This document shows, piece by piece, positions 13,093 to 51,154 of a stretch of DNA of 64,000 nucleotides. Every line of letters begins with the position of its first letter. The first letter of the stretch is position 1. A program made the position numbers and the translations under genes. The stretch is from positions 27,077-91,076 of IMG/VR virus record IMGVR_UViG_3300008262_002626; one strand, 5' to 3'. Below the pieces are notes generated by a model. The model was given only the letters and a program-made list of their open reading frames with translations. It was not told the DNA's origin and did no database searches. The DNA comes from a virus.

Positions 13093-13676
13093 TATTTATT
13101 GTATATTACAATATCTTTTTGGTAAAATCAAGCCGTTAGAACAGGTCAATAAATGTGCAGTTGCACACGACTCAGTATAAATACTGATACACACAAGGAG
13201 AGAGTAATGTTTAAAAAAGTTCTATCATCAGTATGGGATTTTTTCTGTGCAGTTGGGGAAGCTCGATATGCCGCAGAATTAGCCCGCAATGGCAAATGGC
13301 GTGAAGCCCAGGAATATTGCCAGAAGTAATATGTTTTGCGAATTCCAAGAAGTACCGTATCACCAGTGGGGGCCGTGGCGTAATCAATGGGGTTACATAA
13401 CCACGGTAGCCCAGTTTGCTGAAGATGATATCCTGCTTAAATCTATCACCCCTTATAAAACAAATATCGTTAAACGATATAGCGACTGGGAAGATTGTCA
13501 GCGTGGGATAGAATTAATTGAACAGGATAGGAGATTCTAATGACACAGTTACACTGGCAACCAATGACCGACGAAGATGTCGAATGGGTAAATAATCCAG
13601 GGAAAAAATCATGTTGACTCTTGATTTCTTTCCTGCAGGTATATATAATAATAACACATACACACAAGGAGGAGTT

Positions 13677-28939: not shown

Positions 28940-29212
28940 TTAGAGGGTGATACCCATTGCCTTAGCCTTGTAGCCAAGTGCAACGATTTCACGTGATGGC
29001 TTACCCATAACATACTCAGTTACTGTAACGCCATTACCTGCTGTACGGCTATTAGCATAGACAGCATAACCGTTTGAACGGATGCGGCTTGCTTCAGCGG
29101 CTAGGTTCTTTACACCAAAACGCTTAGAAGCCTGAGCGGCTGTTAGTGCTTCGCCATTGTAAAGTGCGTTAAAAACTTTGTATGTCTTTGTCTCTGGGTT
29201 AAAAAATTTCAT
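28940..29212 (-). CDS. winged-helix DNA-binding protein
   Basis: LTAAQASKRFGVKNLAAEASRIRSNGY. Confidence 0.6.
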   Translation of the reverse strand: MKFFNPETKTYKVFNALYNGEALTAAQASKRFGVKNLAAEASRIRSNGYAVYANSRTAGNGVTVTEYVMGKPSREIVALGYKAKAMGITL

Positions 29213-39622: not shown

Positions 39623-40115
39623 GGGTTATGTAACGCATTATATACAAGCAGGGGCGGTAGGGAGCCTAGATAGTATAGTATTAAGGGGCTGGCCTAACCG
39701 TTAAATACTTGATGATCAACTATAAGATGGTTCCCCTAGCACACGTAAGAGTACGGGATCATGACTATGCTGTATATATTAGTCTATGTCTACACACCCG
39801 TTCAATGCACATATTCAAGTATAATGATCTTTGCTGTGAATATGATGTATTTGATGTGCAGGAGGAGGCCACACGATTTATAGAACAACCATTGCCCAAG
39901 CCCAGAGCCCGATCTAAATAAGAACGATTCGCACGTAAGAACTGTTCTTATCTAAGTTAATAACCCTTGTGTCAACCAGGGTATTTTTTTCTGTGGCTTT
40001 TATGCCACGGGCGAGTGCGGTGTTTGTGGCTCAAAAACAACACTTTTCTAGGCGGATTTTGGTTGACAGTTTGGCTGGGGTCTGCTATACTATAGTCATA
40101 GTGAAGGAGCGAACA

Positions 40116-40439
40116 ATGGCAAGAACCCGTAAAATCCGTTCAGACTGTAATTACATCATCTACGAAGCGGTGGACGAGCATGGTGAGAACTACATTGGGC
40201 TCACACGAAAAGCCACTACCGTAGTCCGTTCAGTCAAAGAGCGGTGGCGTAAGCATCTGTCCAGAGCTCGTAACGAGAATCGCGAGTGGGTACTATATCA
40301 GTATCTAAAGGCGGGTGCCCTGGACTTCCACTGGGAACATAGAGTCCTGGAGATCGTCCGAGGACGCAAGGCGGCCTATGCTCGTGAGCGTGAGATCGTT
40401 AAGATCCAAAAGCCCACACTCAACGATCAGTATCTCTAA
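40116..40439 (+). CDS. GIY-YIG nuclease-like protein
   Basis: IIY...YIGLT...RW.KH...E; RBS GGAGCGA. Confidence 0.7.
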   Translation: MARTRKIRSDCNYIIYEAVDEHGENYIGLTRKATTVVRSVKERWRKHLSRARNENREWVLYQYLKAGALDFHWEHRVLEIVRGRKAAYAREREIVKIQKPTLNDQYL

Positions 40440-40506
40440 GGATTGGTTGACAGCTGGTCCTTAGAGTGCTATACTATAGGCTACAGTAAACGATTAGGAG
40501 CGAACT

Positions 40507-41229
40507 ATGAAACTGTTATCTACAGCCAACCCAAAGATCCAAAAGGGCACCAAGCTCGGCTATTTGAGCTTTATCCTGCATCTTGCACCTGCCCAACTCA
40601 GCGGTAAGGAGACTTGCCCTAAGCGAACCGCAGGCTGTACTGAGGCTTGCCTTAATACCGCAGGCAGAGGGGGCATGTTCCGCAAGGGCGAAAACACCAA
40701 CGTGATCCAGCAGGCTCGTATCCGCAAGACCAAGATGTTCTTTGAAGATCGCGATACCTTTATGGAGTACTTGGAGCAGGACATCAACCTGGGCATCAAG
40801 CAGGCAGCTCGCTTGGGCTTGAAGCCCGTGTTCCGCTTGAATGGTACTTCAGACCTTGCTTGGGAGAAGTATAAGCTCAAAGGTTCGGACATGAACGTCT
40901 TTGAAATGTTCAACGACATTCAGTTCTACGACTATACTAAGGTCCTGGGGCGCAAGGTTAAGGATATCCCCAACTACCACTTGACATTCAGCGCCGCAGA
41001 CGGCAACGAATCAGACGTACAAAAGGCAGTGAGTGCAGGTATGAACGTGGCTGTGGTGTTTGATCGCCTGCCCGAAACTTACCTGGGCCGTGAGGTTATT
41101 AATGCAGACGACACTGATCTCCGCTTTTTGGACCCTAAGGGTACTATCGCAGGGCTTAAGGCCAAGGGTCGTGCTAAAAAGGACACCACTGGCTTCGTGC
41201 GCAGGGTGATTGACATCCAGGCAGTTTGA
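40507..41229 (+). CDS. Gp88-family Cys-cluster protein
   Basis: CP..TAGC...CL, RLNGTSD, FYDYTK, NYHLTFS. Confidence 0.7.
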   Translation: MKLLSTANPKIQKGTKLGYLSFILHLAPAQLSGKETCPKRTAGCTEACLNTAGRGGMFRKGENTNVIQQARIRKTKMFFEDRDTFMEYLEQDINLGIKQAARLGLKPVFRLNGTSDLAWEKYKLKGSDMNVFEMFNDIQFYDYTKVLGRKVKDIPNYHLTFSAADGNESDVQKAVSAGMNVAVVFDRLPETYLGREVINADDTDLRFLDPKGTIAGLKAKGRAKKDTTGFVRRVIDIQAV

Positions 41230-41268
41230 GCTTATACTATAGGCTAAGTTAACAAAAAGGAGCGAAGT

Positions 41269-41547
41269 ATGGACATCAAAGCAATCAACACCGCAATCAT
41301 TTCGGGTAACTTTACCGCTACAGAACTGGACAGCCTGCAGGATGCTATCAAGTTCGCCCGTAGCAAGACTGCTCGTACCAATGCCTTTACTTTCAAGGCT
41401 GGTAGCAAGGCCAAACTGACCCACGATAAGCTGGGTGGCACTGTGGTTGTCACGGTAGGTAAGATCAAGATCAAGAAGGCAGATGTGGTAGTAGATAAAA
41501 CGGGTGCTCGTTACTCCGTCCCACTGTCCATGCTGGAGGCTGTATAA
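41269..41547 (+). CDS. early hypothetical protein
   Basis: own promoter and GGAGCGA RBS. Confidence 0.75.
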   Translation: MDIKAINTAIISGNFTATELDSLQDAIKFARSKTARTNAFTFKAGSKAKLTHDKLGGTVVVTVGKIKIKKADVVVDKTGARYSVPLSMLEAV

Positions 41548-41774
41548 TGAAGACCATACAAGAAATCTTTCCGGGCATTATGATCTACGATACTGAGCCA
41601 GTGGCTGTAGAGAACCCGTTCAGTGGGGAGAGCTATACCCTAAGCCCTGAAGAAGTGGCGGTCTACGACTACCTCAAAGGGTGCGAACTCATTGGTGACT
41701 ATGCAGGTGTCCGCAAGGCCCTGGACTGGTTCATGGATAACAATGCAGAAGCCTACATGGCTCTGCTGGACTAA
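41547..41774 (+). CDS. early hypothetical protein
   Basis: coupled ORF. Confidence 0.7.
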   Translation: MKTIQEIFPGIMIYDTEPVAVENPFSGESYTLSPEEVAVYDYLKGCELIGDYAGVRKALDWFMDNNAEAYMALLD

Positions 41775-41783
41775 GGAGCAGAT

Positions 41784-41985
41784 ATGTACACGGTTATCGT
41801 TTATAAGGTAGACAAGCGGACAGCATACCGTCAAGCATACATGGCGGGCGGCACATGGATTCCGCTATGAGATCCACGAAACTATGGTCACCCGTAAGAA
41901 CCTAATGGGTGGTGCTGAGTATCAGGAGCGGTTCGATACGCCCAGGTACTGTAGCCCTAGTTCAGAAGCCTACTGGTCAATGTAG
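41784..41985 (+). pseudogene. frameshifted small early gene
   Basis: SD plus ATG frame stops after 28 aa; an overlapping frame continues to YCSPSSEAYWSM*. Confidence 0.55.
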
Positions 41986-42117
41986 TACCAAGGCCCCCAT
42001 CGCCTGGACCCTCTCCATAGGACTTGGGTTCTGCAACCGGGGGCCTTCCTTTTAATCACCCGCCAAAACCGACAGGCACCCTCGACGTCCACCCCCTTTA
42101 AGTTCGAACATGTGTAT

Positions 42118-42146
42118 ATTATACCCTCGTGGGCCCAATCTGTCAA
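42118..42146 (-). promoter_or_regulatory. inverted copy of the early promoter
   Basis: GGTTGACA-17-TATAATATACACAT on the minus strand. Confidence 0.85.
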
Positions 42147-42254
42147 CCGAAAGGCCGGAATACCCGAGTAACCTGTAGGGTCTTTAGACATAGGGGTTGA
42201 CAATTTGGGCTAGGTATGTAATAATACACATACTGCAACAAAGGAGCGAACTTT

Positions 42255-44943
42255 ATGCAAACAAACTGCCTAGCCCGTGCTACACTAGTAAAAAGCCGTA
42301 AATTGCAAAATACGCAATTTTATAAACTCAAAGTAGCATTTAATGTTACGCAAGTAAACCCTGTCACCGGCAAGTATATTTTCCCTACACAAAAAGCCTG
42401 CGCTTATGTAAGCGGAGACATACAAATAGACGAATTAGGGCGTGTGCTTGTTAATGTGCAAAATGTTATCCGTAGCAAAAATATAGAACTTGTATAACTT
42501 GTAGGGTTATTGCACAGCAAGTTGACATTTTGGACTTGCTGTGCTATAATTGTTTTTTAAGTAGCAAAAGGAGCGATAAATGCAAAAACTTACACTAGTG
42601 CGTTACGAACGTGACGAAGACTGTATTATTACAGAGTTTGCTTGCGAATATGCAGTTACTACAGCTGGAGACGGCTTGTGGGGGTGCGAAGCAGGTAGGA
42701 AAGTAAATGTTACAGGTATTACTATTATTAATAACATTTACGACGGCGAGATTTATACGCAAGTAAATGTTACACACGACAGTACTTGGGACATTTATAC
42801 AGACACGGGTTTTGAAACTGCTATTAGCGACGCTTTAGGCTTTGCTGTTACATTTACAGAACAAGGTATGCAAGACGACGAGTTTGCGAGTATGGAAGCA
42901 TAAAACAAATAGCACAGCACAGTTGACATTTTGGCTGTGCTGTGCTATACTGTTGTTTTAGTAGTTAGAAGGAGCGAAAATGCGTAAAGTAGACAAGGTG
43001 CTAGCACTGCTAGCAGAGGCACGTGCATTGTGCGACGAGCTTACTATTGACGGTGTTAAGTTTGGTGAGGACACAGACTGCGATAACGCTTTTTATGACG
43101 TGTTTGAGAAGCTGGATACTGCACAGGAGGCAGTGGGCTTTTACTTTGATTTGGAATAAGGAGCGACAATGTTGACAGCAAAACAAAAAATTGAGAAGTT
43201 GCAGGAAGCTATTGCACTGCTACAAGATGTAGATGCACTACAGCAAGTAGGCATGGAAGGCTTTGACAGTGACGTGTGCTATGAATTGCACAATGAGATT
43301 GAGAACATTATAGACACGCTAGGCGAGGCTATAGGGGAGTTAGAGGTAGAGAATGCTTAATAGTATTTTAAAGTGGACTGCGCTTGCGGCAACGCTGACG
43401 GGTGCAGGCTTCACTGCCTTTGAGCTACACTTTGCCAACAGAGAGTTGCTGGCACTGGGTAGCCTGCTGTACTTGGTATGGAGTGTACGCATTAGAGAGG
43501 CTAACTTGATAGCTGTTAACGCAGGCCTATTAGCCCTATACGCTGTAGGGTTATTCTTGAAGTAGGTTGACTGTTTGGGCTAGGCTTGCTATAATTTGGG
43601 CATAAGGAGCCGTTATGTACAATCAAGTCAAGCTAGCCCGTTTTGCCGCTAAAAATAACCTTACACTTTTCCAGCTTATTGAATACTGGAACTTTTTCGA
43701 CGAGGACGCACCTGCGGACATTGTCCAAGCATACGAAGCATTTTTTGCGGAATATAGGGACAATGTACAGGAGGAAGTCCGCATGGCACTAAAATAACCC
43801 TTCGGTTGACAGGGCGATCGTTTGGTGCTATAATATACACATACTAAAGGAGCGAACCTATGTTAAATGTCGATAAAGTAGCCCGGGTCTATTCCGGCAA
43901 GATTGGTTGTATGTGTGGTTGCAAGGGCAAGTACACCTACAATGAGGGCGTGGCCCACGAGGACTGGCAGGGTGCGGTCAATGTGCGTACCGTGCGTCTG
44001 TTCACCAAGCAGGTCTTGTCTCACCCTAATGTCAAGTGGGAAGACAATATTGCTTTCGTTGAGGAAGCAGGCCGCATTAAGGTTGTATTCTTTAAGGAGC
44101 AGGAATGATAACTGCTGACACGCTGAGTCGTATGACCACCTTCTCTGCAGAGGGCCTTACCGCCCTTATCCGCAAGGCCGGCTACAAGAAGGACAGCTTC
44201 AAAGAGGCCCAGTTCCTGGGCATAACCAATGGTGGGCAATACTGTTACAAGGTGCTCTACTTCGATGGGTTTATGGGCGAGGATGCTTGGACTAAGGTGT
44301 TCGTAACGCATGACCAGTTTGAGCAGACTACTGTAGCAGACTACTAGGTTGACAGATTGGCTAGGGTGTGCTATAATATACACATACTAAGGAGAGCGAC
44401 ATGGCACTAGTAGACGGACAAAGAGTTAAAGTTGGCGACTGGGTCTGCTTTAAGAGCGACATAGAACAGTCGGGTAGGATTACTGCAATCCTCAATGGCA
44501 ACAGGCTCGTACTTGAAAACCCTAATGGCTTCCAGGGCGATTACATTGGCGGGCTTGAAACTACAATGCAGTCAGCGGTTGACTGTTGGATAGAGTGACA
44601 GTATAATACAGTTAATGGGCGGTACAGGCAGTCCTAGGTAATACCTTAATGCAGAGTCAAATCAAGTGCGTGCCTACTCTGCGCCCACCCTTCAACAAAC
44701 AAGGAGCGAACCATGCGAGTACAAGACCTAATTGACGAGCTGAAGGCATATGACCCTGAAGCTGAAGTGCATTTCCACTATAACTATGGCGACCACTGGC
44801 GTACCCAAGTAGCACCCAAAGTCACCGAAGTGTTTGACGGCCCTGTAGAGTACAGTGAGTACCACCGTATGCACAAGCTGGCTGACGAGGACTACGACGA
44901 CGAGTGTGGCGAAAATACTACACGGGTTGTGATCATTGGTTGA
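42255..44943 (+). CDS. series of small early hypothetical ORFs (42255, 42580, 42980, 43169, 43353, 43615, 43860, 44105, 44401, 44713)
   Basis: most have their own promoter and/or a GGAGC-type RBS. Confidence 0.75.
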
Positions 44944-45000
44944 CAAGTTGACCAATTGAGCATACAATAGAGTTATAGTAAACAACTAGGAGCGAAACAA

Positions 45001-45468
45001 ATGGCTACACGTTCAACTATTGCGCTGGAATTTGCAGACGGTACTGTTCAACAAGTCTACTGCCACTGGGACGGTTACTTGGACAACAACGGCAAACTCC
45101 TGCTCAACAACTACAAAGACCCTTTCAAACTGCGTGACCTTATTGACTTAGGCGACATTAGCTCGCTAGGTCCTGAGATCGGCGAGAAGCACGACTTTGA
45201 CATTCCGCACAAATACGGTACACCGGAGTACGAAGCGGAGCAACGGGTGCGTCAGGGCATTACTACTTTCTACGGACGTGACCGTGGCGAAGAAGGCACC
45301 CAAGCCCGTAAGTTTAAGGACTACGCTGACTATCGTGCCAATGCACAGTTCGAGGAATACAACTACTGCCTGCGTAAAGACGGCAACTGGTATGTTGAGT
45401 TCTACGGTCGCTTTGACGGCTTGCTGGAGCAGGCTATTATTGAAGCAGAAGCAATGGAGGCAGCATGA
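45001..45468 (+). CDS. conserved phage protein (MATRS...YCHWDGY)
   Basis: promoter, RBS and a recognisable motif. Confidence 0.75.
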   Translation: MATRSTIALEFADGTVQQVYCHWDGYLDNNGKLLLNNYKDPFKLRDLIDLGDISSLGPEIGEKHDFDIPHKYGTPEYEAEQRVRQGITTFYGRDRGEEGTQARKFKDYADYRANAQFEEYNYCLRKDGNWYVEFYGRFDGLLEQAIIEAEAMEAA

Positions 45469-45669
45469 AAGCCTATGTAACTACTATCCTGCGTCAAGAG
45501 ATTGAAGTACCTGAGGGTTGGGACCGTATGGATGTGTTTGACTTCCTTGGAGAGTATCAGAGCTTTCGTACCGCCTTCCAGGGTGTAAGCAACGAAGATC
45601 AAACAGCTCGTATCATTGACGTAATGGTCCTAGAAGAAGAAGTTACTGAACTTGGCGAGGAGGCCTACG

Positions 45670-45825
45670 ATGACTAAATTTTGGATGGTAACTGAAGACC
45701 CGATGTATGACGAAGACGGGCAACTGGTAGACGAGGACTACATTGACCCAGATGAGTGGGACGAAGCATTTCCTCCGGAAGAGATCGACGAAACCTACGA
45801 TCCTTTTGAAACTGTTAATAGCTAG
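45670..45825 (+). CDS. very acidic 51-aa protein
   Basis: GAGGAGG SD; 19 D/E and 1 K. Confidence 0.6.
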   Translation: MTKFWMVTEDPMYDEDGQLVDEDYIDPDEWDEAFPPEEIDETYDPFETVNS

Positions 45826-45843
45826 TTCGCTCCTAGCACGGCC

Positions 45844-45873
45844 AGACCCCCTCCGACATGGGGGTCTTTTTTT
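45844..45873 (+). terminator. rho-independent terminator
   Basis: AGACCCCC/GGGGGTCT stem plus T-run. Confidence 0.85.
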
Positions 45874-46515
45874 GGTTGACACCTAGCCCAAACGATGTTA
45901 TAATATACACATACTAAGGAGAGCGACATGCAGATCGAAGGACTGAACAAAACCCAGCGAGCCCTAGCAGACATCATGTGGGGCATGGACAGCAAGGATC
46001 AGGTCACAGCATTCATCGGATCACTGCGTGGACAGCAACAGCGTGACGCCCAAACCGTGCTAGAACTGATGCTGTTAGCCATTTGGGACGAGTGCGAAGA
46101 TACCCAGGATGCCTGTAGGGTTATTGATCAGTTCCGGTTGACAGACTGAGTCCAATTTGCTATACTATAGGCTAAGTTAAACAAAAGGAGCGACAGATGA
46201 ACATAGCAACTATCGAACAGTATGTGGATGGTATCAACCGTTGGGGTGCCCTGTTTGGTAACAAACCCCTGAGCCTGCTCAACGCCAAGGACCGTCAAAA
46301 GATTGCAGATCGCATTGACTCTGACCTTAGCCCTGAGAACTTGACCTGCGATGGTGAACTGCCCCGTAGCCAAGTCCAGCAACGCTACCAGTTCCTGACC
46401 CGTGCGGCCCGTGAACTGCAAAGCATTGACCCTTCAGTAACCTTTTACGAATTCAGTTGACAATAGGGCCGAAAGGCCCTATAATTGATACATACTTAAA
46501 CACAAGGAGCGACTT

Positions 46516-47151
46516 ATGCCAAATTGGTGCAACAACACACTAGAGATTACCCATCCTGATCCTGCTATGATTGAGCGGGCGCGGGTGGCATTCGCAGAGG
46601 GCAGACTGCTTGACGAGTTTGTGCCTGTGCCCAAGGACTTGCATATCGTAGCGGGCCGTGTAGGTGCCGACAACGACCCTAAACAGATTGAACTAGAAGC
46701 ACAAGAGAAGAGCAACCTAGACAAGTATGGCTACAAGACTTGGTATGACTTCTGTGTCAACGAATGGGGCACCAAGTGGGATGTAGGTGGCGATGGCTAC
46801 GAAGCACAGGATATCCCTAACGGGTTGATCATGTCGTTTGATAGTGCATGGGCCCCTCCTTGCAATGCCTACGAGAAGATGTTGGACTTGGGTTTCAGCA
46901 TCCGTGCTACTTACTACGAACCCGGTATGGCTTTCTGCGGTGAGTGGGAAGACGGTAACGATGACTTCTACGACATCAGCAACATGACTAGCGATCAAGT
47001 TCGTGACCTGTTGCCCGAGCATCTCGATGAATCCTATGGTATTAGCGAGTGCATTGCCGAGTATGAGAATGAAGAAAAGGACGAGGTCCAAACATGGTAT
47101 GAAGAGGGTGTGGAATCAAAAGGATTGGAGCCACACAAAGTAAATGAGTAA
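46516..47151 (+). CDS. YubB/DUF1281-like ferredoxin-fold protein
   Basis: MPNWCNN, WGTKWD, FDSAWAPP, YYEPG. Confidence 0.8.
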   Translation: MPNWCNNTLEITHPDPAMIERARVAFAEGRLLDEFVPVPKDLHIVAGRVGADNDPKQIELEAQEKSNLDKYGYKTWYDFCVNEWGTKWDVGGDGYEAQDIPNGLIMSFDSAWAPPCNAYEKMLDLGFSIRATYYEPGMAFCGEWEDGNDDFYDISNMTSDQVRDLLPEHLDESYGISECIAEYENEEKDEVQTWYEEGVESKGLEPHKVNE

Positions 47152-47489
47152 ACTAGAGATCTACCTAAGGCCGCTGGTGCTGTTTGATGCAAGTAACAAA
47201 GAGCACCGGCAGCTCTACTTTAACTATTTGGCAACAGGTGGTTGGGCAGGATGTCCATATCGGTTCGCTATAGCAGAAGATTATGGGAACTTGATTGGAC
47301 ATATACAGCGAGAGCTTTTGGAATACTATATGGGCCGCGAGTTCAAAGGTAAGATCAAAGAAACAAGAGTTTTGGTTCGCCAAAAGAAGAAGAAAAAGGT
47401 TGACAACTGACCCAAATAGTTGTACAATATGGACATGCTAAGGAAACTGGCATAAACTAACTAAACCACACACAGAAAGAGGTATTAAA

Positions 47490-47849
47490 ATGGCTACAGA
47501 TAAATTGTTTAACGTTTGCGGTGTTTCGAAGCTTGATGGTGAGTACAAGGTGCGCTTTGCTACTGACATCATGCGTATCAAAGTACTTGCTAAACACGGT
47601 CACGAAGACATTCGTTTGGCTGAGTTGGACAAGGCTGTTTCTAAGTACGAAGCAGTTACTCAGATCAAGACCATGGCTGAGTTCGCTGATGCGGCTGCTC
47701 AGGCTGCTATCGCTGAGTACCTTGAGGACAAAGCACCTAAGGCTCCTAAAGCTAAGGCAGCTCCTGCTCCTAAGGCTAAGGCTGCTAAGGCACCTGCCAA
47801 AGCTACTAAGGCTAAGGTTGAAGCTGATCTCGAAGACGCACCTTTCTAA
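47490..47849 (+). CDS. protein with Ala/Lys/Pro-rich (histone H1-like) tail
   Basis: KAPKAPKAKAAPAPKAKAAK. Confidence 0.7.
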   Translation: MATDKLFNVCGVSKLDGEYKVRFATDIMRIKVLAKHGHEDIRLAELDKAVSKYEAVTQIKTMAEFADAAAQAAIAEYLEDKAPKAPKAKAAPAPKAKAAKAPAKATKAKVEADLEDAPF

Positions 47850-48104
47850 GAGACTAAACAGAACGGCCCGGGTGCGATTCCCGGGCATCACTTCATATAC
47901 ACGACTAACATGAGCTGGACGCAATACGAAGTTTGGGCCGAAATGGATGGCCACCAAGAACTGATCGAAACCACACATTCCCGGAAAGAAGCAATAGCAC
48001 TAGCAGAGAAGACATTCAATGACGGGTGCGATTTCGTGGAAGTATTTGAAGAAACCAGTGATGGTGACTACCAATCAATCAAACAACTAAGTAGATAGAG
48101 TGTA

Positions 48105-48181
48105 GGGCCTATAGCTCAGTTGGTTAGAGCAGTGGACTCATAATCCATTGGTCCCTGGTTCGAACCCAGGTGGGCCCACCA
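48105..48181 (+). tRNA. tRNA with CAT anticodon, probably Ile2 (lysidine type)
   Basis: cloverleaf, GACTCATAATC anticodon arm, GGTTCGAA, encoded CCA. Confidence 0.9.
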
Positions 48182-48186
48182 ACATT

Positions 48187-48263
48187 CTGCCCTTAGTTCA
48201 GCTGGATAGAACAACGGCCTTCTAAGCCGTAGGTCAGAGGTTCGAGTCCTCTAGGGCAGGCCA
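48187..48263 (+). tRNA. tRNA-Arg(TCT)
   Basis: CTGCCCT/AGGGCAG acceptor stem, CTTCTAA loop, encoded CCA. Confidence 0.93.
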
Positions 48264-48362
48264 ACACAGGGTGTTGTATTAATACAACATCCTTTTCTTT
48301 TGGTTGACAGATTGGCTAGTCGGTGCTATAATATACACATACTGAAACATTAGGAGCGAACA

Positions 48363-50085
48363 ATGATCAGAGTCTTTAATTCAGCAAACCCCGGTTCCGA
48401 GCAGATCCTCGACGAGCAAGATGTTACAGTTCGTGGCATCCGGCTCAACGCATTCAACGAACCCATCCTCACTTTCGCCCACCCAGACTTCCCTTTAGGA
48501 GATCTCCGTGCTACCTACTCGGGCACGATTTGGCAGTGCGATCTTGATTGACAACCGGACCGTTTGGGCTTATAATATACACATACTAAGGAGAGCGATA
48601 TGATTACACTAGAAACTCGAGAGAACTATGATACCACCCACGGCGGCCCATTTGACCGTGGCTCAGCAGACAGCTACTACGGTCGCCCACGTGATCCGCA
48701 CTGGTATCCAGAGGGCACCTACAACGGTGAGCGCATCACTAAAGATGCTATGACTCCTCAGCAGATCCAAGCCTACCTCGCAGGCTACCAATACAATGAG
48801 CAGTTCGGTGACAAGAAGGACTGGGGTTAATATGGAACTCTTCAAAGAAGACCTCAAGATGCTGGGCTATGCCCTAGTGGTCTACGCTGTGCCCTTGACG
48901 ATCTACTGGCTTTTTATTGGTTGACAGTTTGGGCCCGTGGTGCTATACTATAGGCTAAGTTAAACAAAAGGAGCGAACTATGATGCTAGTAATCCGTACA
49001 CAATACATGGAAAACTATGGTGCCCACGACTGGGACGGTACTGGTGCTTGCCCCCAGTACTGGAAGTTCAAGGGCGGTAGCGAGTACAAGGTCGTTGGCG
49101 TTCCTCTTAACATCGACTACGCAGAAGTGGTCGCTATGGCGGGTGTAGAAACCGACAACGACTACTGCCGTGAGTATGTCCTGGATTGGAGCATCGAGGG
49201 CGATGACTACCTCTCCGAGTTCGAGAAGAGTCAGCTGGAGTATGAAGGTGAGATCCAGTTCAAGGAGCCTGTGATCGAATACGCAGAGCTCAACGATCGT
49301 TACGAAGATCCCCGGGCCTATGCAGAAGCAGCCGCTGATGCCGACGCCCAATACTATGGAGCCTAATATGACTGACATCCTAATCCTAGCCTTTCTCGAA
49401 ACTATTGAACTCTGGGCTTTCCTGAGCATACTGGCAATAGCCCTAGCCTTTGAAGGGTTAATCAACTGGTACAGATCTAAAACGGTTGACAACCCATCCA
49501 TTTGGTAATATACTATAGGCTAAGTTAAACAAAAGGAGCGAACCATGCAATACACTGTAGAACAAATCCGAGACATCGTAGCTGAAGCTAGCACTGCCGC
49601 TACTGAAGCCGCAACCCTGTTCTTCCAAACTCGACTAGGCGGCCGTGATCAATACGCCTGTGGCTTTGCCTGGGTAGACATCCTGGGCATCAAAGGCAAC
49701 ACCAAGCTGGGCCGCGCAATGAAAGAGGCAGGCATCCGCAAGAGCTACACTGGATCATTCCAATTGTGGAACCCATCAGGTCTGCCCGTACAGAACGTAG
49801 ACACTCTGGAAGCGGGTGCAGATGCGGCCGCTAAGGTCTTCCAGAAGTATGGTTTCACTGCCTACGCTGGTAGCAGACTGGACTAAGGAGCAGACCATGA
49901 GCAACCAATGGCGAGTAGGTTTTACTGTATATTTGAACGATGCTATGACCGAAACACAATCAGATCTAACCAATCTGGAGACTGTGGTCACAGCATTCCA
50001 ACCCAGCCAAGCAGAAGCTATGGTCCGGGCACAGTATAACAATAGAGCACATATTTGGTACTGTCGCCCAGCCGAATGGGCTTGA
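48363..50085 (+). CDS. series of small early hypothetical ORFs (48363, 48600, 48980, 49545 and others)
   Basis: promoter plus RBS cassettes. Confidence 0.75.
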
Positions 50086-50138
50086 CAACTAGACCAAGCG
50101 ATCTTATAATTAATGTTTTACACACAGGAGCGATTTAA

Positions 50139-51023
50139 ATGGCAAGAGTTATGACCCTAGCGGCAGTTACTGAAAAGACTCGTTCAAAGCGTTCAGGCAC
50201 CAGTGAGAGCCTGGAGATGGAGCCTATTGAGAAAGTACTAGTAGAGTCAGATGAAGAAATCATGAACCGTTTGGCTGCTCGTTTCGAAATCCTTATGGAG
50301 ATGACACGTGCCGTTAAGAAGGGCGATGTTCGTGCAATGATCGTATCAGGCCCTCCGGGTGTGGGCAAATCGTTTGGTGTTGAGCAGGTCTTGTCAAAGC
50401 ATGATGTGTTTGCAGATGTAGCCAACGATACTAAACTTAAGAAGTACGAAGTGGTCAAGGGTGCTATGAGTGCCATTGGTTTGTACAAGAAGCTCTACGA
50501 GTTCTCAGATCGCAAGTGTATCCTAGTGTTCGATGACTGTGACTCAGTACTGCTTGATGACCTTAGCCTTAACATCTTGAAAGCCGCTCTGGACAGCTCT
50601 AAGAAGCGTACCATCCACTGGAACACAGACAGTCGATTGCTACGCACAGAAGGTGTGCCCAATTCATTCGAGTTCAAGGGCGGTGCTATCTTTATTACCA
50701 ACATCAAGTTCGATAATGTACGCTCAAAGAAACTGCGTGATCACTTGGAAGCACTGGAGTCACGTTGCCACTACTTGGACTTGACTATTGATACTGCACG
50801 TGAGAAGCTCCTGCGTATCCGTCAGGTAATCCGTGACTGCGGCATGCTTGATGACTATGGGTTTGATGACACAGTCAAAGCACAGGTCGTAGACTTTATT
50901 GAGCGTAACCAAAAGCGTATGCGCGAGCTGAGCCTGCGCATGGTGCTCAAGGTAGCAGATCTAGCTAAGAGCATGCCACACAAGTGGGAAGCTGTAGCAG
51001 AAGTAACTTGCATGAAGCACTAA
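50139..51023 (+). CDS. AAA+ P-loop ATPase
   Basis: GPPGVGKS Walker A, VFDDCD Walker B, ALESR. Confidence 0.9.
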   Translation: MARVMTLAAVTEKTRSKRSGTSESLEMEPIEKVLVESDEEIMNRLAARFEILMEMTRAVKKGDVRAMIVSGPPGVGKSFGVEQVLSKHDVFADVANDTKLKKYEVVKGAMSAIGLYKKLYEFSDRKCILVFDDCDSVLLDDLSLNILKAALDSSKKRTIHWNTDSRLLRTEGVPNSFEFKGGAIFITNIKFDNVRSKKLRDHLEALESRCHYLDLTIDTAREKLLRIRQVIRDCGMLDDYGFDDTVKAQVVDFIERNQKRMRELSLRMVLKVADLAKSMPHKWEAVAEVTCMKH

Positions 51024-51040
51024 TAAGCTACAGCAAGTAG

Positions 51041-51154
51041 GACAGGCCCAACGATTCGCTCCCGGTAAGCCTGTCAAGACCGAACCCGATTCGCTCCCGG
51101 TATTAGGTCATGTTGTGCCCCAGGATTCCTCCCCGGTTTCCTGGGGTTTTTTTT
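51041..51154 (+). ncRNA. candidate anti-RBS small RNA ending in a terminator
   Basis: three hairpins with TTCGCTCC/TTCCTCC loops, then T8. Confidence 0.55.

Follow-up and report, generated by a model that had tools for sequence, protein, structure and literature searches.

The locus and its features

The 64,000-nt stretch analyzed here (the window) is the last 64 kb of a 91-kb linear IMG/VR contig (IMGVR_UViG_3300008262_002626, referred to as G000 among the genomes compared). The source is a freshwater jumbo phage, and several features mark the contig as a fragment of a large T4-related phage. It encodes a ribonucleotide reductase, a DnaB-type helicase, virion proteins, and an AAA+ protein that is 50% identical to one in the PA5oct-like Pseudomonas jumbo phages and is related to T4-type nrdC.10 proteins. 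TAAATA boxes are located in front of late-looking genes. Related contigs of 140-340 kb are rated 38-99% complete, so the genomes are about 350 kb. A blastn search of the region against cultured phages found nothing. By protein, the PA5oct-like phages are the nearest cultured relatives, but their local layout is different.

Positions 39969-51153 on the + strand form an early block. In this block, about 20 near-perfect TTGACA-17-TATAAT promoters each drive a short leader with the RBS GGAGCGA. This RBS is specific to the block. It is present in 14 of 18 promoter-proximal leaders, whereas 94 of 124 other ORFs in the contig have no GGAG at all, and GGAG is mostly followed by A. One operon of this block ends with a small hairpin, whose loop, UUCGCUC plus the next C, is the exact complement of the early-gene RBS GGAGCGAA. 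The relevant features are as follows.

40495-40507 (+): RBS of the GP88-like gene (Pfam PF17338), the best partner of the hairpin in the contig
44940-44968 (+): consensus-type sigma-70 promoter of the operon that ends at the hairpin (TTGACA-17-TACAAT, 11 of 12 positions)
44986-44996 (+): leader/RBS of the first gene of the operon (45001-45468), an 11-nt complement of hairpin positions 45826-45836
45670-45825 (+): last ORF of the operon (51 aa, acidic), with its stop TAG at 45823-45825 in the 5' arm of the hairpin
45821-45837 (+): anti-RBS hairpin of class A, with a 5-bp stem and the 7-nt loop UUCGCUC
45823-45835 (+): 13-nt segment complementary to the RBS-to-start region of the GP88-like gene
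45844-45873 (+): intrinsic terminator (8-bp G+C-rich stem at 45844-45867, 7 T)
45876-45904 (+): perfect consensus promoter of the next unit, whose leader is the poorest partner of the hairpin
48969-48980 (+): second-best partner (12 nt), RBS of gene 48980-49366
51041-51109 (+): two sister (class B) hairpins that present the same loop after the last early gene
51117-51153 (+): terminator of the early block

The earlier note described the hairpin GCTAG/TTCGCTC/CTAGC, the adjacent terminator with CCTCC, a 12-nt complementarity to the leader of the GP88-like gene, and a match to the leader of the 45001 gene in the same operon. Its observation is confirmed, as every one of its sequence statements holds. 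The hairpin folds at -3.9 kcal/mol. The complementarity to the RBS of the GP88-like gene is 13 nt, one more than claimed. It is 12 nt to the leader at 48969 and 11 nt to the leader of the operon's own first gene.

Occurrence of the motif

Both the frequency of the motif and its presence in relatives had been named beforehand as tests. The 8-mer TTCGCTCC occurs 14 times in the window against 1.05 expected from shuffles. Only three copies are on the + strand, at 45826, 51055 and 51090. Each of these lies between a stop codon and one of the two strongest + strand terminators of the early block. In the 91-kb contig, all 16 copies are accounted for: 13 are RBSs followed by ATG at +1 to +5, and the others are these three. 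A third terminator-like hairpin at 48268 follows two tRNA genes (48105-48260) inside the early block and has no such copy. A minus-strand gene that uses the inverted copy as its RBS was considered and rejected, since no start codon follows it and the 79-aa antisense frame is the mirror of an acidic ORF.

The enrichment bears on the possibility that the element is a neutral remnant or a chance match, for example an inverted scrap of a promoter-leader cassette left by recombination. Leader cassettes are highly repeated in the block, and the stem uses the self-complementary CTAG. However, the copy number relative to shuffles, the invariance of the core where neighboring non-coding DNA has diverged, and its recurrence after different genes contradict this reading, which is regarded as very unlikely.

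Known RNA elements were also considered. A search against Rfam returned only tRNAs, and the best other hit near the sister element has E = 1. A lambda-type nut site consists of the boxA core GCUCUUUA followed by a hairpin. Here, GCUC is followed by C and then by variable bases, never by a U-run, so a nut-like boxA is excluded by sequence. T-arm mimicry was suggested by the 5-bp stem and the 7-nt loop starting UUCG, but was rejected because the loop has C where A58 would be and the class B loops are larger.

Distribution in related phages

Seventy-one loci (numbered with the prefix L; larger related contigs carry the prefix G) were fetched through the operon's first protein. They show the motif TCGCTCC, or at least GCTCC, on the sense strand of early 3'UTRs in three forms. 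Class A is the form found at 45821-45837. Its 15-nt core, CTAG-(T)TCGCTC-CTAG, is invariant in seven contigs (the window, L009, L026, L022, G038, G039/G041 and G040), in which the flanks are about 50% identical and the mean column identity is 55%. It follows three different genes: a small protein ending in NS-stop in most of these, another small protein in G038, and the AAA+ gene in G040. The C-terminal NS-stop of the window's last ORF is shared with L009, L026, L022 and G039. The terminators that follow are unrelated in sequence. The CCUCC in the window's terminator is not conserved, as L022 has another sequence there and L009 and L026 have unrelated terminators. The class A element is missing at the homologous site in L013, L014 and L034. 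The four inner stem pairs never vary, so the hairpin itself has little covariation support.

Class B has the core CCGATTCGCTCCCGG, often in two copies. It follows the AAA+ gene or a winged-helix gene and frequently forms the apical loop of the terminator itself. Class C occurs in a second clade. It is a conserved structured element of about 100 nt after the winged-helix gene (for example, L047:5731-5830 and L011:5994-6085). A single-stranded UCGCUCC GAAGUCC is followed by a hairpin with covarying stems and the invariant loop GGUAGUGU, and then by a long terminator-like hairpin capped by GUGA. This element has no Rfam match. The window's own ortholog of the winged-helix gene (Pfam HTH_39; 28943-29212, minus strand) lies in another module and is followed by a plain terminator without the motif.

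In a strict MFE test, the class A and B motifs lie in an apical hairpin loop in 13 of 25 instances, against about 5% when the flanks are shuffled. Most of the other instances lie in larger apical loops. The stems are unrelated and differ from phage to phage. The earlier note had argued that the same architecture on unrelated stems at two transcript 3' ends reflects selection on the loop, and this is supported. A conserved loop on variable stems would also be expected of a protein-binding RNA site, at which a bound factor modulates termination, processing or 3' end stability, and the complementarity to the RBS would then be incidental or secondary. The motif is often the apical loop of the terminator itself (L017, L054 and the second copy of G005), and class C has a second invariant loop. 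This reading is considered unlikely because it does not explain the extended matches to distant leaders and to the clade's own leader hexamer described below.

Predicted pairing of the sister elements with a late leader

A csgF-like late gene lies outside the window on the other strand of the contig (about 12580-13175 of G000:C1, minus strand; locus L199). It matches Pfam CsgF above the cut-off, and a CsgG-like gene follows it in G001. Its leader, located behind a TAAATA box, is complementary to the class B loops at 51052-51066 and 51087-51101 over 13 and 14 nt. Early 3'UTR elements (class B, C or A-like) pair with the csgF-like leader by sequence in seven of eight genomes, although the flanks differ between lineages and match on both sides.

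G000: 14 nt
G002: 14 nt
G001 (class C): 13 of 14
G005: 17 nt with a single G-U
G013: 11 nt
G040: 12 nt
G008: 10+5 nt around a 1-nt bulge, where even the core has changed on both sides

The eighth genome, G049, shows no complement after its AAA+ gene. In G040, the class A copy after the AAA+ gene was predicted to match the csgF-like leader, but this prediction failed with only 8 nt. Instead, a class B copy after the winged-helix gene gives the 12-nt match. Predicted duplexes are -28 to -41 kcal/mol, and for G001, G002 and G005 the phage's own pair is the best of six.

Other leaders also match class B loops. In G040, a second late-type leader behind a TAAATA box (L301; G040:C1:30980-31130, minus strand) carries a 12-nt complement of that phage's class B loop and precedes a secreted protein, which hints at a small regulon. 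In G002, a gene for a 497-aa secreted protein (L201; G002:C1 about 68776, minus strand) has a leader with a 12-nt complement of the class B loop of G002. A further RBS of the GGAGCGAATC type outside the window (G000:C1:597-606) is complementary over 10 nt to the class B loops.

The RBS of the csgF-like gene can also be sequestered in cis by an arm placed upstream of the TAAATA box. In relatives, these arms co-vary with RBS variants (GGGAGCGA against GGGGGCGA) and use G-U pairs. The loop of the early-block terminator holds a variant of the motif (51126-51137), and this variant and the cis arm upstream of the csgF-like late promoter (G000:C1 about 13159-13170, minus strand) share the same 12-mer in RNA sense.

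A match is also seen at the level of clades. Class C phages have early leaders of the type ACACTA..GGAGC (58 of 143 leaders, against 8 of 131 in the class A/B clade). Their 3' element carries GCTCC and, in the conserved loop, TAGTGT, in the order expected for antiparallel pairing. Each clade's 3' element is therefore complementary to its own leader type through different sequences, although in class C phages only 5 nt of the UCGCUCC motif match the usual early RBS.

These matches could alternatively reflect a site that works at the DNA level, where one double-strand-binding protein reads GGAGCGAA-type sites in either orientation at early leaders, at the csgF-like leader and at operon ends. The same duplex sequence recurs in both orientations, complementary sites would also co-vary if one such protein read both, and the winged-helix gene lies next to the element in many relatives. 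However, inverted copies occur only inside transcripts, between a stop codon and a T-run, and in hairpin loops. The G-U positions in G005 and in the cis arms of L213 make the two DNA sites unequal while keeping the RNA pairing. In the window's own genome, the winged-helix gene lies elsewhere without the motif. This explanation is considered very unlikely.

Predicted partners of the class A hairpin

Class A differs from class B at the positions flanking the core. Class A fits the early leader consensus, with A before GGAG and AAC after GGAGCG, while class B fits the csgF-like leader, which has G before GGAG. The partners of the hairpin at 45821 are generic early leaders (10-13 nt). In the window, the best are those of the GP88-like gene (13 nt, covering the SD to the A of the start codon), gene 48980 (12 nt), and genes 45001, 48363 and 42255 (11 nt each). 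Predicted duplexes with 14 of 18 window leaders are -17 to -24.5 kcal/mol, against about -10 for shuffled elements, and opening the hairpin costs about 4-5 kcal/mol. The GGAGAGCGAC-type leaders, including that of the next gene, match poorly. Three promoter-leader cassettes (44349-44400, 45876-45927 and 48548-48599) share the variant RBS GGAGAGCGA and are the poorest predicted partners, so they may escape the hairpin. The leader of the next gene (45928) is the weakest of 18 (-13.0 kcal/mol, z -0.4).

No single conserved target was found, and the best partners differ between phages. The GP88-like leader was rejected as the conserved target, since it matches over only 9-10 nt in L026 and L022. 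In G038, the 13-nt sites belong to orthologs of genes 44401, 48980 and 46516. No perfect 15-17-nt target was found in G000 or in five larger contigs (G002 and G038-G041). A comparison of own-phage with other-phage complementarity within 8-kb loci gave no signal, and a matched change on both sides was seen for this hairpin only in L026.

The leader of the operon's own first gene keeps a complement of 11 nt in the window, 10 nt in L009, 11 nt in L026 and 9 nt in L022. In L026, the loop and the leader both differ from the window, and no other L026 leader matches as well. It is thus possible that the element acts only in cis, pairing with the RBS of gene 45001 and closing the mRNA 5' to 3' as in S. 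aureus icaR, which would tune translation or decay of that mRNA alone. Every transcript ending here carries both partners, and cis pairing fits the class A data equally well. On the other hand, the match is not specific to the element's own mRNA. In the window, L009 and L022, other leaders match as well or better. In G038, G039 and G040, the own-operon match is only the generic 10 nt, and the sister elements clearly match a gene on another transcript. Exclusive cis action is a live alternative but is considered unlikely.

Proposed mechanism and significance

Anti-leader pairing at the RNA level is the best reading of these data, and we hold the following model to be somewhat more likely than not. 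The hairpin would be carried at the 3' end of every transcript that reads through to the terminator at 45873. No terminator as strong as the two strongest of the early block lies between the promoters at 40063-44940 and position 45873, and transcripts from all eleven promoters should therefore end with it. In this view, the loop and 3' arm are an antisense seed against the early-type leader (U)AGGAGCGAAC(UA). When exposed, the seed would base-pair with such leaders, occlude the Shine-Dalgarno and start region, and block 30S binding, lowering translation of early genes. This could happen on intact mRNAs or, more effectively, as a terminator-protected 3' fragment that outlives the coding part. 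We favor action in trans, probably as a stable terminator-proximal fragment, but cis pairing with the operon's own first RBS is also possible. Because the stop codon lies inside the stem, terminating ribosomes at 45823 would mask the seed on translated mRNA, and exposure would rise as translation of the operon falls.

What the analysis shows directly is the sequence, the fold, the enrichment, the conservation of the loop on changing stems and, for the sister elements, extended complementarity with a specific leader whose flanks differ between lineages. Pairing in vivo, repression as the direction of the effect, and the existence of a processed RNA species are inferred from sequence alone. The earlier note's interpretation, negative feedback by a 3'UTR-derived RNA, is thus partly supported: selection on the loop and the reading of the element as an RNA-level complement of leader/RBS sequences are supported, while fragment accumulation and negative feedback remain inferences.

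A broader reading is possible but tentative. A large clade of freshwater jumbo phages may end its early transcripts with a family of loop-presented antisense seeds of differing specificity, one type directed against the early leaders themselves (this hairpin) and another against late leaders of a phage-encoded curli-type secretion channel (csgF-like) and other secreted proteins. Seeds and leaders would co-evolve, giving an RNA-only timing circuit between the early and late programs of a lytic phage.

Few regulatory RNAs of lytic phages have assigned targets. Here, target leaders can be read from sequence comparison alone, and for the sister elements the match holds through flanks that differ between lineages. 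If the pairing is real, it provides a simple, portable way by which a phage limits or times translation of its strongly expressed early genes, and a way to keep an outer-membrane secretion channel silent until late in infection. It also gives a recognizable signature, the complement of the phage's own leader in a loop next to early terminators, that can be searched for in other uncultured phages.

Comparison with known systems

The individual parts resemble systems that have been described. What is new is their arrangement, in which the complement of the phage's own leader is displayed in loops beside early terminators, is conserved over a large uncultured clade, and comes in types matched to different leader sets.

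In the S. aureus icaR mRNA, an anti-SD motif in the 3'UTR pairs with its own 5'UTR (PMC3868564), and a 5'/3'-UTR interaction is found in B. subtilis hbs (PMC5737220). As in these cases, a short C/U-rich complement of the Shine-Dalgarno region is located in the 3'UTR of the mRNA that also carries the matching RBS, here over 11 nt to the first gene of the operon. However, the same loop also matches about a dozen other leaders, recurs at a second operon end, lies in a phage early region, and has sister copies that match a gene on another transcript.

Base-pairing sRNAs embedded in or derived from bacterial 3'UTRs (reviewed in PMC5502269) and ncRNA candidates from UTRs of virulent Pseudomonas phages (PMC10914365) are also comparable. 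The hairpin lies between a stop codon and the mRNA's own intrinsic terminator with a U-tail, its seed is more conserved than its surroundings, and it is complementary to translation initiation regions. No internal promoter is visible, a derived fragment is only inferred here, and the phage candidates in the literature have no assigned targets.

T4-type hairpins around late promoters (genes e, soc, 49 and I-TevI) sequester the RBS, with an anti-RBS arm that blocks translation on the wrong transcript. This layout is present in this phage group at the csgF-like gene, where the arm lies upstream of a TAAATA box. The hairpin at 45821, however, is not upstream of a matching RBS, as the next gene's leader is its poorest partner, and it therefore cannot work by this cis layout.

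Finally, plasmid and phage antisense RNAs reportedly present their recognition motifs in loops with a YUNR U-turn (Franch et al. 1999). The recognition sequence of the hairpin likewise sits in an apical loop that starts with UUCG, which fits YUNR at the sequence level, although the element is part of an mRNA 3' end and is not a separately promoted antisense gene.
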